A DNA stretch of 44,404 bases from Fidelibacterota bacterium. GTDB taxonomy: Bacteria > Fidelibacterota > Marinisomatia > Marinisomatales > S15-B10. The translations under genes and the position numbers were made by a program. The stretch is taken from assembly GCA_046861655.1 (NCBI GenBank), contig JBHIAI010000006.1:1-44404 (forward strand), given 5' to 3'. Below the pieces are notes generated by a model, which did no database searches, was not told the origin of the DNA, and saw only the letters and a program-made list of their open reading frames with translations. Numbering within the stretch: the stretch's first letter is position 1; each line of letters opens with the position of its first letter. Below are positions 25,653 to 29,478 of this stretch, in pieces.

Positions 25653-26567
25653 ATGCCGGTCCTCAATCTGACTGCCGACGTATCGGGGGTTCGTCTGGAT
25701 AGGTATCTCGCGGATGAAATCGAGATCGTGTCCCGGTCGAAAATCAAGCGGGTCATCGAGTCTCAAGGGGTACTGGTGAATGGGCAACAGGTGAAACCGA
25801 GTTATCTCATACAGGGCGGGGAGGTCATCCTGGTAGATATCCCCGACCAGGGGCCTGTCCGGGTGGGAGCCGAGGATATTCCCCTGGACATTATCCATGA
25901 GGATCATGATCTTATTGTTGTGAATAAACAGGCCGGCCTGGTGGTTCATCCCGGGGCCGGAAATAGAACCGGGACTCTGGTGAATGCTCTGGTGTATCAC
26001 TTCGACCGTCTTTCCAAGGGTCACGGACCTCAGCGACCCGGTATCGTTCACCGTCTGGACAAGAATACGTCCGGGGTACTTGTCGTAGCCAAGAACGACC
26101 AGGCCCACCTCTTTCTTGCCCGGCAGTTTGCCCGGCGAACCGTGGAAAAAATGTATCTGGCTTTGGTCTGGGGTCTCCTGAAGGACAGGGAGGGGACGGT
26201 GGACGAGCCCCTGGTGAGACATCCGCGAAAACGGCGAAAATTTACCTGCGACCATGGCGGAAGACCGGCTGTTACCCGGTACCGAACGGAAAAAGAATAC
26301 GGGGACCTGTCCCTGGTGGAATTGTTCCCTCTGACGGGCAGGACCCATCAACTGCGAGTCCACATGTCCTGGATTGGACACCCCATTCTGGGAGACCCGG
26401 ACTACGGTGGGGGACGATCGAGGACAAAACTGATCGGCCGCCAGGCTCTTCATGCCCGTCGCATTACGTTCCTTCATCCCAGTACCGGGGAAAGGGTATT
26501 GTTTTCAGCACCCGTACCGGAAGATTTTCAAACCGTTCTAGATCGCCTGGAGCGAGGGGATGAGTGA
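25653..26567 (+). CDS. rluD: RluA/RluD family 23S rRNA pseudouridine synthase
   Basis: N-terminal S4 domain; NKQAGLVVHP, GIVHRLDKNTSG and TGRTHQLRVH motifs. Confidence 0.93.
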   Translation: MPVLNLTADVSGVRLDRYLADEIEIVSRSKIKRVIESQGVLVNGQQVKPSYLIQGGEVILVDIPDQGPVRVGAEDIPLDIIHEDHDLIVVNKQAGLVVHPGAGNRTGTLVNALVYHFDRLSKGHGPQRPGIVHRLDKNTSGVLVVAKNDQAHLFLARQFARRTVEKMYLALVWGLLKDREGTVDEPLVRHPRKRRKFTCDHGGRPAVTRYRTEKEYGDLSLVELFPLTGRTHQLRVHMSWIGHPILGDPDYGGGRSRTKLIGRQALHARRITFLHPSTGERVLFSAPVPEDFQTVLDRLERGDE

Positions 26568-27843
26568 CCCCAAGCGGGAAACCGTTGAACGGTTCCTGGA
26601 GTACCTGGAAAAAGAAAGGAACTATTCTCCCCTTACCATCCAATCCTACCGGAGGGATCTGACCCAATTCTGCCGGTTCCTGAACACGTATCAAGGAAGG
26701 ACTGTTGGTCATTTTCGCGGGGTTGACAGGTTCACCGGGAGGCACTTCCTGAACTACCTCATGGAGACCGAATTCCAGCTGGGAGGTGGCAGGAAGGGAA
26801 ACCTGAATCAACGATCGGTGGCAAGAAAGCTGGCGGCAGTAAAATCCATGTTCAAGTATCTTGTGAAGGCGGAGGAAATAGCCGTCGATCCCTTATCCTC
26901 GCTGAAGGCTCCCAAACTGTCGCGGAAACTTCCTTCCTTTCTGGAAGAGGGAATCATTCCGGCCCTGGCCAACCTCCCTTTTCCCGAGACCTTTGAGATT
27001 CAGCGGGACCTGGCCATCATGGAATTCTTTTATAGCACGGGGATGCGCCTGGCGGAACTTGTGAGCGTTTCCGTGAGGGACCTTGATTCCGAGGAGAACC
27101 TGGTGCGGGTGGTAGGAAAAGGAAATAAGGAACGAATCATCCCCTTTGGAGATACGGCCAAGAAGAGAATATCCGTTTATCTCAGGGTCAGGGCACAGGA
27201 GTTGGGAACTCCGGAACCCGAGCACCGGTTATTTGTGACCCGGCGGGGAGCATCCATATCGCCCCGGACCGTTCAGCACAGGTTGAAGCAGTTGTTCGAC
27301 CAACTTTCGGTCAGGCTTGCTCCCGTTCCGGAATCCACGGCAGGATGCCGGGACAGGGCCATGGTGGAGCTGACCTATTCCACCCCTCTAAAGCCCCGGG
27401 ACCTGGTGAAGCTCAATGTGAGCCATGTCAAGACGGACAATGGTCATGTGACCGTGACGCGACCGGGAAATCCTGACGAGGTTTATTCCCTTCGGGACCT
27501 TCCGGCGGACAGCATCGCTTCTTACCTGGAAAAGCGCAGGGGCCCGCATACCGGGGATGAACCACCATCGGAGACCTCACCTCTTTTTACCTCCGATGAG
27601 GGAAAACCGATGAATCTGGCGGACATTCAAAGGGTGGTACGGGACTACCGCAAGCGGGGATTCAAATTCAGCCCCCATGTCCTGCGTCATACGTTCGCCA
27701 CTCATCTTGTGGACAGGGGCATGGATATCCGGGCTGTGAAGGAGCTTTTGGGCCACGCCAGTCTGTCATCGACTCAGCTCTACACTCACATGAGGGTGGA
27801 GCAGATGAAGAAGGAGTACGACCGGGCCCATCCCCACGCCTGA
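26560..27843 (+). CDS. xerC: Tyrosine recombinase XerC-like, with internal duplication (427 aa)
   Basis: SAM-like N-domain (YSPLTIQSYRRDL); catalytic R163, K187, H373-x-x-R376, H399 and Y408; C-terminal HPHA. Confidence 0.88.
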   Translation: MSDPKRETVERFLEYLEKERNYSPLTIQSYRRDLTQFCRFLNTYQGRTVGHFRGVDRFTGRHFLNYLMETEFQLGGGRKGNLNQRSVARKLAAVKSMFKYLVKAEEIAVDPLSSLKAPKLSRKLPSFLEEGIIPALANLPFPETFEIQRDLAIMEFFYSTGMRLAELVSVSVRDLDSEENLVRVVGKGNKERIIPFGDTAKKRISVYLRVRAQELGTPEPEHRLFVTRRGASISPRTVQHRLKQLFDQLSVRLAPVPESTAGCRDRAMVELTYSTPLKPRDLVKLNVSHVKTDNGHVTVTRPGNPDEVYSLRDLPADSIASYLEKRRGPHTGDEPPSETSPLFTSDEGKPMNLADIQRVVRDYRKRGFKFSPHVLRHTFATHLVDRGMDIRAVKELLGHASLSSTQLYTHMRVEQMKKEYDRAHPHA

Positions 27844-27855
27844 GGGGAAAACGTC

Positions 27856-29478
27856 ATGACTGTAGACCTCGGATACCTGGGGATCACGGATGCCGGCGAA
27901 ATCGGATACAATCTCCCTCCGGACATTCTTGTGGAAAAAGTCCTGACTCGGGGCGAAGGCAAGTTGGGTATGAACGGGGCTCTCATGGTGGATACGGGCC
28001 GGTATACCGGCCGGTCCCCCAATGACAAGTTCTTCGTTCGAAAGGGTTCCGGAGACTCAAACATTTGGTGGGGTCCCGTCAACCGGCCTGTTTCGGAGGA
28101 GGTATTCCACATACTTCTGAAAAAAGTGGTGGAGTTCTACAACCGCAATGAAGACGGTCCGGGGGCCCTTGTGTTCGACGGGTTTTGTGGAGCCGACAGG
28201 GAATCGGCCCTTCCCGTCCGGTTTGTTGCCAAGAAGGCCTGGCAGGCCTTATTCGTCCATAACATGTTTATCCCACCGGGAAAGGAAGAACTGAAAGGAT
28301 TCCGCCCCGGGTTTACCATCATCAACGCTTCCCCGGTCGTTGACGAGGACTGGGAGAAACACGGCCTCAATTCAGAAACCTTCATCATCTTCAACCTGGA
28401 ACGGCGGATCGGCATCATTGGAGGATCCGAGTACGGTGGAGAAATGAAGAAAGGGATCTTTTCCATCATGAACTATTATCTCCCTCTGGACGGCACCCTT
28501 ACTATGCATTGTGCCTCGAATGTGGACATGAAGGGAGAAAACTGTGCCCTGTTTTTTGGTCTTTCGGGGACAGGAAAGACCACCCTTTCCACCGACCCCG
28601 ATCGTCTCCTGGTGGGCGATGACGAACATGGATGGTCTCAAAGGGGCATTTTCAACCTGGAGGGAGGATGCTACGCCAAGGTCATAAATCTGAGCAAGGA
28701 TTCGGAGCCGGGCATCTGGGGGGCCATCAAGCACGGTGCTCTTCTGGAAAACGTCGTGTTCGATGAGAAAACTAGAAAGGTGGATTTCTCAGACGCTTCC
28801 AAGACCGAAAACACCCGGGTGTCTTACCCCTTGAACCACATCGAGGCGTCCCTGGTATCCCGGGGAAAACCCAGTGTGACCGGTCATCCTAAGACGATTC
28901 TGTTTCTTTCCGCCGATGCCTACGGGATTCTCCCCCCCGTAGCGAGACTGACTCCTGATCAAGCCATGTACCATTTCATCTCCGGCTACACGGCCAAGGT
29001 GGGGGGAACCGAGAGAGGGGTCACGGAGCCCGAGGCCACTTTTTCGCCCTGTTTCGGGGGGCCATTTCTCACCCTTGAGCCCCTGACCTATGCCAAATTG
29101 TTGAGGGAAAAAATGAAAGAGCACGGAACCCGGGTTTATCTTGTGAATACAGGATGGAGCGGGGGATCGGTCGCCTCGGGCGCTGACCGAATGCCCCTGA
29201 AGGTGACCCGCGGCATCGTTACGGCCATCCTTTCAGGAGAGTTGGAGAAAGCCTCTTTTGAATCGGAACCCGTTTTCGGACTGGAGGTGCCCACCTCACT
29301 GGCCGGAGTGGATCGTTCCTTTCTCATGCCAAGAAATGCCTGGTCGGACAAGGACTCTTATGACCGGACCGCAAGGTCTGTTGCGGAGAAATTCAGGGAT
29401 AACTTCAAGCAATATGCAAGAGCTGAACCGTCACTGGAAAAAGCGGGACCACACTCCATTGCTCGGACAGGCTCCTAA
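27856..29478 (+). CDS. pckA: Phosphoenolpyruvate carboxykinase (ATP)
   Basis: TGRSPNDKF, YGGEMKKG, FFGLSGTGKTTLS, GDDEHGW, NLEGGCYAK and ENTR motifs. Confidence 0.98.
   Translation: MTVDLGYLGITDAGEIGYNLPPDILVEKVLTRGEGKLGMNGALMVDTGRYTGRSPNDKFFVRKGSGDSNIWWGPVNRPVSEEVFHILLKKVVEFYNRNEDGPGALVFDGFCGADRESALPVRFVAKKAWQALFVHNMFIPPGKEELKGFRPGFTIINASPVVDEDWEKHGLNSETFIIFNLERRIGIIGGSEYGGEMKKGIFSIMNYYLPLDGTLTMHCASNVDMKGENCALFFGLSGTGKTTLSTDPDRLLVGDDEHGWSQRGIFNLEGGCYAKVINLSKDSEPGIWGAIKHGALLENVVFDEKTRKVDFSDASKTENTRVSYPLNHIEASLVSRGKPSVTGHPKTILFLSADAYGILPPVARLTPDQAMYHFISGYTAKVGGTERGVTEPEATFSPCFGGPFLTLEPLTYAKLLREKMKEHGTRVYLVNTGWSGGSVASGADRMPLKVTRGIVTAILSGELEKASFESEPVFGLEVPTSLAGVDRSFLMPRNAWSDKDSYDRTARSVAEKFRDNFKQYARAEPSLEKAGPHSIARTGS

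Follow-up and report, generated by a model that had tools for sequence, protein, structure and literature searches.

The xerC gene of an uncultured Fidelibacterota bacterium of the order Marinisomatales codes for a tyrosine recombinase of 427 residues. As sequence comparisons confirm, the N-terminal half of its catalytic domain is present twice, in tandem and in frame, residues 252-366 being the second, diverged copy. The gene is found on contig JBHIAI010000006.1 of assembly GCA_046861655.1, in a stretch of 44,404 nucleotides (positions 1 to 44,404, forward strand; called here the window). The first copy of the half-domain (A1, residues 141-251) has the catalytic Arg and the beta-hairpin Lys of the family. 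The second (A2) has lost both, and it is inserted between A1 and the C-terminal, box II-containing half of the domain (B). Few housekeeping enzymes of bacteria are as uniform as XerC and XerD, whose catalytic domain is regarded as a single compact unit. We lean, with slightly more than even confidence, towards A2 being a dead duplicate integrated into the enzyme as a structural or protein-contact module that does not bind DNA.

A XerC protein with a split catalytic domain

The reading frame at 26560-27843 (plus strand) contains no internal stop codon, and its product has 427 residues compared with ~300 for other XerC proteins. This length and the residue numbering given in a preliminary description of the window both hold in the translation and the alignment. 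The whole protein scored 339.7 bits against TIGR02224, the NCBIfam XerC equivalog, above the cut-off of 335.15, and 300.6 bits against the XerD model, under its cut-off of 329.6. PF02899 matched residues 9-104 (E 1e-15). R163 (in 'STGMR'), K187 (in 'GKGNK'), H373, R376, H399 and Y408 are all invariant in an alignment of 20 sequences, and the R-K-H-x-x-R-H-Y catalytic set is complete. The protein departs from the family in its architecture: instead of a single contiguous catalytic domain of ~170 residues in a total of ~300, its domain is split by 115 residues. The matches to Pfam PF00589 (Phage_integrase) and to TIGR02224 are both divided into two stretches, the latter because of this insert.

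In a tree computed on the non-insert columns, the protein lies within the XerC clade, separated from XerD at 100/100. The gene neighbourhood is that of its relatives as well, with rluD upstream of xerC at 19 of 19 loci and pckA downstream at 15 of them; because this order is shared, the ~300-residue XerC genes of the relatives, which belong to the same family and order, are positional orthologs. By family score and phylogeny, the protein is the XerC of its clade.

The second half-domain is a diverged copy of the first

Self-alignment of the protein paired residues 149-242 with residues 264-357 (27% identity over 94 residues, 36.2 bits, E 8e-9). None of 1000 shuffled versions of the second copy reached 36.2 bits, the best scoring 24.3. 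A profile-profile comparison, which the preliminary description had proposed as a check, was also significant: hhalign aligned a profile of the second copy (four sequences) with that of the first (20 sequences) over 104 columns with a probability of 99.5% (E 1.3e-22). A1 and A2 are adjacent and in register, with an offset of 115 residues; both open with the motif P-x-P-E-[ST] and are closed by the same helix. No similarity between them is left at the nucleotide level, and the G+C content at third codon positions of A2 equals that of its flanks (0.649 vs 0.658). The preliminary description of a tandem, catalytically degenerate duplicate of the box I half in a genuine XerC protein was thus borne out by self-alignment, shuffles and profile comparison.

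The tree computed from half-domain segments places A2 within the XerC group (100/100 vs XerD), in a subclade of 19 rows (85/92) that also contains the A1 segments of the genus, the stem of A2 being four times as long as that of A1 (1.53 vs 0.38 changes per site). The origin of A2 is most simply explained if the gene's own segment was duplicated in tandem and in frame and the second copy then diverged fast.

The features of the gene and its neighbours are collected in Table 1. The start codon of xerC lies within the 3' end of the upstream RluA-family gene, with an 8-nt overlap (26560-26567) that suggests translational coupling.

Table 1. Positions of xerC, its segments and the adjacent genes in the window
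Feature	Position	Strand	Residues	Basis or comment
xerC open reading frame	26560..27843	+	427 residues + stop	TIGR02224, 339.7 bits; positional ortholog of ~300-residue XerC
N-terminal core-binding (SAM-like) domain	26560..26934	+	1-125	PF02899; helical in the AlphaFold2 (AF2) model, predicted local distance difference test score (pLDDT) 77-93
Clade-specific insertion of ~10 residues in the core-binding domain	26764..26805	+	~69-82	predicted beta-hairpin
A1, canonical N-terminal half of the catalytic domain	26980..27312	+	141-251	colinear with all orthologs
Catalytic Arg of A1	27046-27048	+	R163	invariant column
Catalytic Lys of A1	27118-27120	+	K187	invariant column
A2, inserted degenerate tandem copy of A1	27313..27657	+	252-366	self-similarity; absent from relatives
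B, box II half of the catalytic domain	27658..27840	+	367-427	H373, R376, H399, nucleophile Y408 (27781-27783)
RluA-family (RluD-like) pseudouridine synthase gene, upstream	25653..26567	+		TIGR00005, 300.5 bits
pckA (ATP-dependent phosphoenolpyruvate carboxykinase), downstream	27856..29478	+		TIGR00224, 706 bits

A2 is restricted to one small clade

A search of 41 genomes with the whole protein, the window's own genome (G000) included, yielded a full match over residues 1-427 only in G001, the one other species of the genus (74% identity). The XerC proteins aligned from 18 other genomes have ~300 residues (299-326), with A1 directly joined to B. With A2 alone as the query against 233 genomes of the order, G000 (E 1.7e-75) and G001 (E 1.4e-36) were followed by a match at E 6.1e-13, with 39% identity to the box I region of a frame of 302 residues. 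A five-segment A2 profile run on 401 genomes of the phylum gave 199.7 bits for G000, 192.4 for G001 and 72.6 for the next best. Only these two genomes carry A2 in either set. Five XerC frames of 392-438 residues occur in other genomes of the phylum, and none of the five has a second half-domain.

Among 5.8 billion protein clusters, a word-based search with A2 returned three more proteins of 428-436 residues (A2 57-62% identical), one of which is the G001 protein save for one residue. HMMER, run exhaustively over 1.84 billion representatives, added P0005 (424 residues), with an A2 segment 39% identical at the same position. P0005 and, in another source, the G001-type protein are named as Fidelibacterota, and the sequencing runs that contain the window's gene are labelled as hydrothermal vent metagenome and belong to a single study; no RNA data set with the gene is listed among them. 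A scan of genome contigs with the insert found no further A2; its 11 loci (24-51% identity, unrelated phyla) are all ordinary recombinases. A search of the ESM Atlas with A2 gave only generic PF00589 clusters of 112-134 residues. Three other candidates from the search of representatives, P0006, P0010 and P0028, were discarded as repeat-rich surface proteins that are not recombinases.

In the tree on non-insert columns, the five A2-bearing proteins form one clade (100/99) with P0005 as its first branch, and the sister of this clade is XerC of the same family without the insert (99/88). One gain of A2 suffices, because its five bearers form a single clade. These searches show A2 to be restricted to one small clade of Fidelibacterota; at the level of sequence data, the architecture is rare and clade-restricted.

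A2 has lost the catalytic residues and is retained under selection

We compared A2 with 27 reference positions at which the half-domain of XerC and XerD shows little or no variation. The positions of the fold type are kept (R264, D265, E270, L271, Y273, S274, T275, L282, V299, G303, Y322, L342 and F343), and D281 stands for E166. By contrast, the residues corresponding to G161, R163, G186, K187, K190, R192, P195, G197, R236, T237 and R241 of A1 are replaced. The loss of the catalytic Arg and of the hairpin Lys noted in the preliminary description is seen in the replacement of R163 by K278 and of K187 by P302 (GKG to RPG). In the five A2 proteins, the former position is occupied by K/G/G/R/R and the latter by P/P/P/P/R.

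Among the four close proteins, 47 of the 115 A2 positions are invariant, and conservation is highest in helix 1 (263-277) and in the hairpin (305-316). The latter has become an acidic, near-invariant motif of 15 residues, PGxPDEVYxLxDLPA (302-316). P0005 has a less altered A2, which retains the Arg and a basic, Lys-rich RGKHGK hairpin and aligns with A1 without gaps at 33% identity; the degeneration of A2 was thus stepwise. The net charges of A2 in the four close sequences are 0, +1, +1 and -2. The idea that A2 might be a DNA mimic was dropped, as its net charge is no different from that of A1.

The ratio of nonsynonymous to synonymous substitutions (dN/dS) between G000 and G001, by the Nei-Gojobori method, is 0.22 for A2 (115 codons) against 0.09 outside it; taken separately, A1 has 0.12 and B 0.05. 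These values are rough because the synonymous distance is saturated (dS ~1.4) and they come from only two DNA sequences. Among the five proteins, amino-acid identity amounts to 37-61% for A2, 56-78% for A1 and 85-93% for B. Insertions and deletions in A2 are limited to one loop, and the linker between A1 and A2, RLAPxP, is invariant in all five proteins. A dN/dS value well below 1 shows that A2 is retained under purifying selection, as far as two genomes can tell, and neutral evolution of the insert, which would have spoken against the preliminary description, is not what we observed.

Comparison with canonical XerC, integron integrases and other Xer proteins

The protein is like canonical XerC (TIGR02224) in its family score, its SAM-like domain, its R-K-H-R-H-Y set, its gene neighbourhood and the presence of XerD, the FtsK gamma domain and a dif-like site in the genome. 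It differs in that the two catalytic halves are separated by a degenerate half copy of 115 residues, and in an insertion of ~10 residues in the core-binding domain.

Integron integrases (IntI) are likewise Xer-type tyrosine recombinases with a lineage-specific insertion within the catalytic-domain fold. However, the I2 insertion of IntI is a short helix, whereas that of the present XerC is a whole duplicated half-domain with no sign of a role in DNA recognition. The protein is not itself an integron integrase (TIGR02249, 96.5 bits vs a cut-off of 265). In the portions available to us, the classification paper PMC8138268 presents the insertion of integron integrases as indispensable for integron function and lists several insertions in catalytic domains, with no occurrence of the strings 'duplicat' and 'tandem'. 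The accessible portions of another paper state that no recombinase of the XerCD family acting in dimer resolution is known with an I2-like domain (PMC4792948). We found no description of an internal half-domain duplication in a tyrosine recombinase in the literature searched, and to that extent the preliminary description of an undescribed Xer architecture stands.

A similar arrangement is nevertheless present in P0120, a cluster of 18 Xer proteins of 438-443 residues from several public sources. It too has the N-terminal catalytic half in tandem with one copy degenerate (30% identity over 102 residues, E 1.8e-15), but with the opposite polarity: the first copy is dead and the copy beside box II is the catalytic one. 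The insertion in the core-binding domain is absent from these proteins. The duplication in P0120 is independent, since the best match of its degenerate copy is the canonical copy within the same protein (54 bits, vs 31 bits to A2). Word-based searches with the insert of P0005 or with the degenerate copy of P0120 brought back the queries alone.

The same half-domain is repeated five times in tandem in proteins of the P0007/P0170 type (828-871 residues), for which one source names Candidatus Baltobacteraceae. P0007 (871 residues) has five PF00589 stretches, each covering only profile positions ~20-118. These proteins have neither box II nor a core-binding domain and are not Xer enzymes; their repeats retain the Arg and a GKGN(R/G)ER hairpin. 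Such an array fits with an ability of the half-domain to exist without box II. Taken together, the A2 clade, P0120 and the P0007 arrays suggest a half-domain capable of independent folding and evolution.

Other types of repeats were encountered among Xer proteins. P0011 (407 residues) has an exact internal repeat of >100 residues that includes H-x-x-R and is suggestive of either an artefact of assembly or a duplication of very recent date. P0008, P0009 and P0012 (534-675 residues) are single polypeptides with two tandem recombinase units, and a catalytic domain is present in each unit; the two units of P0009 and those of P0012 are complete.

Partner machinery and candidate dif site

The preliminary description had proposed to look for XerD and for the form of dif in the genome. 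There is exactly one other PF00589 gene, which codes for XerD (TIGR02225, 373.1 bits), and an FtsK gamma domain is present (PF09397, 103.6 bits). A motif scan identified a dif-like 28-mer, ATTGCGCATAAGATATATTATGTCTACT, at G000:C76:13030-13057, with an ordinary 11-6-11 layout and with the end of a gene as its left flank; reversed-pattern controls gave no hits. We take this 28-mer to be dif, and assign the arm bound by XerC, by likeness to the general dif layout. It is identical in G001 and has at most three mismatches in four relatives whose XerC lacks A2. All the mismatches are in the left arm or the spacer, and the XerD-side arm is invariant. The XerC protein, acting with XerD, presumably still resolves chromosome dimers at dif.

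G001 carries the identical 28-mer on two contigs with different right flanks, C37:3537-3564 (L074) and C112:6-33 (L076), which could reflect an element integrated at dif or strain variation. In G000, the corresponding stretch (L073) ends ~100 bases past the 28-mer, possibly at the end of the contig.

Other insertions in XerC proteins of the order

All five A2-bearing proteins also have the insertion in the core-binding domain listed in Table 1; it is missing from all 18 aligned XerC orthologs without A2. In the AF2 model, it comprises strands 71-74 and 78-81, and this hairpin may be coupled to A2. At the junction between the A segment and box II, L012 and L017 have 8-10 extra residues. In sister-family XerC proteins, a Lys-rich insertion of ~130 residues separates the two domains of L079 (G045:C35) and L080 (G041:C1), and the core-binding domain of L081 (G047:C223) is partly duplicated. 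XerC seems unusually plastic in this order.

Predicted structure and possible role of A2

The AF2 model of the full-length protein, built with the 20-sequence alignment, has a mean pLDDT of 82.7 and a predicted template modelling score (pTM) of 0.58. The helices and strands predicted for A2 follow one another as they do in A1 (pLDDT 75-95). Known structures consisting of the catalytic domain only align to the model from residue 124-126 through residue 391-423: 5dcf (Z 13.6, root-mean-square deviation 5.0 Å, 153 residues aligned), 3nkh (Z 10.0, 3.7 Å, 146 residues) and 1ae9 (Z 8.4, 4.3 Å, 138 residues). As these matches begin at A1, they point, weakly, to A1 and B forming the usual catalytic domain with A2 looped out; the pointer is weak because only the first and last aligned residues are known and the fits are loose. 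A second AF2 run on residues 252-427 alone, with a two-sequence alignment, was unusable with regard to the pairing of A2 with box II (mean pLDDT 46.1, pTM 0.28).

On balance, we slightly favour the view that A2 is a dead duplicate that has become an integrated structural or protein-contact module without DNA-binding activity. According to this model, A1 (R163, K187) and box II (H373, R376, H399, Y408) would build the usual active site, and A1 rather than A2 probably pairs with box II. A2 would loop out as a non-catalytic module that does not contact DNA, and it would be kept because it is by now part of the fold or because it offers a surface for protein-protein, possibly regulatory, contacts. 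The remodelled acidic beta-hairpin (PGxPDEVY) would be the most likely functional element of A2.

Several observations weigh against this model or against the origin proposed for A2. B is the least confident part of the AF2 prediction (pLDDT 71-76, down to 49-58 at the C-terminus), below both A1 and A2, and this could reflect uncertainty in the model as to which of the two copies is packed against box II. The pairing of A1 with box II was read from alignment ranges with loose deviations (3.7-5.0 Å). Helix 1 of A2 (RDRAMVELTYST) is nearer to the XerC consensus than the A1 helix of the genus itself, and A2 may therefore still be able to pack against box II; the A2 profile gives 37-62 bits with other XerC A-segments and 33-44 bits with A1 of its own genus. 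The segment tree does not place A2 as the sister of its own A1, although a grouping of both in a single clade was not rejected by an approximately unbiased test (p 0.137). Lastly, in addition to the roughness of the dN/dS values, a ratio below 1 could arise without a specific function, by selection against misfolding upstream of the essential box II.

This last point leads to the possibility that A2 is a tolerated passenger in a permissive loop between the A segment and box II, devoid of a function of its own and kept only because a frameshift, a stop codon or misfolding at this place would ruin the essential box II downstream. The junction does accept other insertions, those of 8-10 residues in L012 and L017, and XerC genes of the order have further odd insertions and a duplication in the core-binding domain. 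In addition, A2 evolves faster than A1 in terms of identity and than the rest of the gene in terms of dN/dS, and there is free variation at the counterparts of the catalytic residues (K/G/G/R/R). Nevertheless, A2 has been neither lost in frame nor shortened in five lineages despite its low identity, with length changes confined to one loop; the acidic hairpin motif is near-invariant amid otherwise diverged A2 segments, and the linker is invariant throughout. We thus consider it unlikely that A2 is a mere passenger.

Another possibility, the strongest form of the built-in pseudo-partner suggested in the preliminary description, is that the box II-facing surface has been preserved in A2, so that both copies compete for box II; we regard this as rather improbable. 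Pairing of box II with A2 would give an inactive state and pairing with A1 an active one, and XerD, FtsK or DNA would perhaps determine which of the two is adopted. The fact that box II is the least confidently predicted part of the model yet the most conserved in sequence would fit with such a switch, and so would the motif of the buried helix, which is the best-conserved window of A2 and is nearer to the consensus there than in A1. A2 directly adjoins box II in the chain, and either position can pair with box II, because the copy next to it in P0120 is the catalytic one. However, the catalytic-domain matches to the AF2 model begin at A1 and not at A2, the A2-B segment folded alone gave no usable model, and a housekeeping XerC is already under the control of XerD and FtsK. 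A broader version of this idea, in which the half-domain is an autonomous evolutionary module whose dead copy would serve as a built-in decoy gating dimer resolution, having arisen twice with opposite polarity, is speculative and we give it little credence.

The preliminary description had also proposed that A2 might be an extra DNA-binding unit that extends the recognition of dif. It does descend from a DNA-contacting half-domain, and the second clade-specific insertion, with basic residues, is located in the DNA-binding N-terminal domain. In contrast, six conserved basic positions (R163, K187, K190, R192, R236 and R241) are replaced in A2, its hairpin is now acidic in the four close proteins and its net charge is near neutral there (as given above). 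Extended recognition of dif is unsupported, because the dif-like site is an ordinary 28-mer shared, with the same layout and the invariant XerD-side arm, by the four relatives devoid of A2, and its left flank is merely the end of a gene. We view this proposal as very improbable.

Finally, we give practically no credence to an artefact of assembly or gene calling such as a collapsed or chimeric repeat: although the genome comes from a metagenome assembly broken up into 198 contigs and the unrelated P0011 has an exact repeat of an artefact-like kind, A1 and A2 have no nucleotide similarity, five diverged versions are found across separate assemblies, and contigs of other samples span the insert, X3 (27268-27720) bridging both junctions and X4 (27421-27697) the 3' junction, with no deletion joints seen. 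The runs with bridging contigs all come from one study, X1 being possibly the window's own source. The preliminary description had likewise argued against an assembly duplication, and the four other diverged proteins and the bridging contigs agree with it.

Implications for Xer recombination

Half of the catalytic domain of XerC has thus been duplicated in place, has lost the residues for catalysis and has been retained under selection. If A2 has a regulatory or protein-contact role, it would represent a new mode of control of Xer recombination. If it has no function, it would be a clean natural case of how large an insertion an essential recombinase can accept where box I meets box II, and knowing this would be useful for the engineering of tyrosine recombinases.

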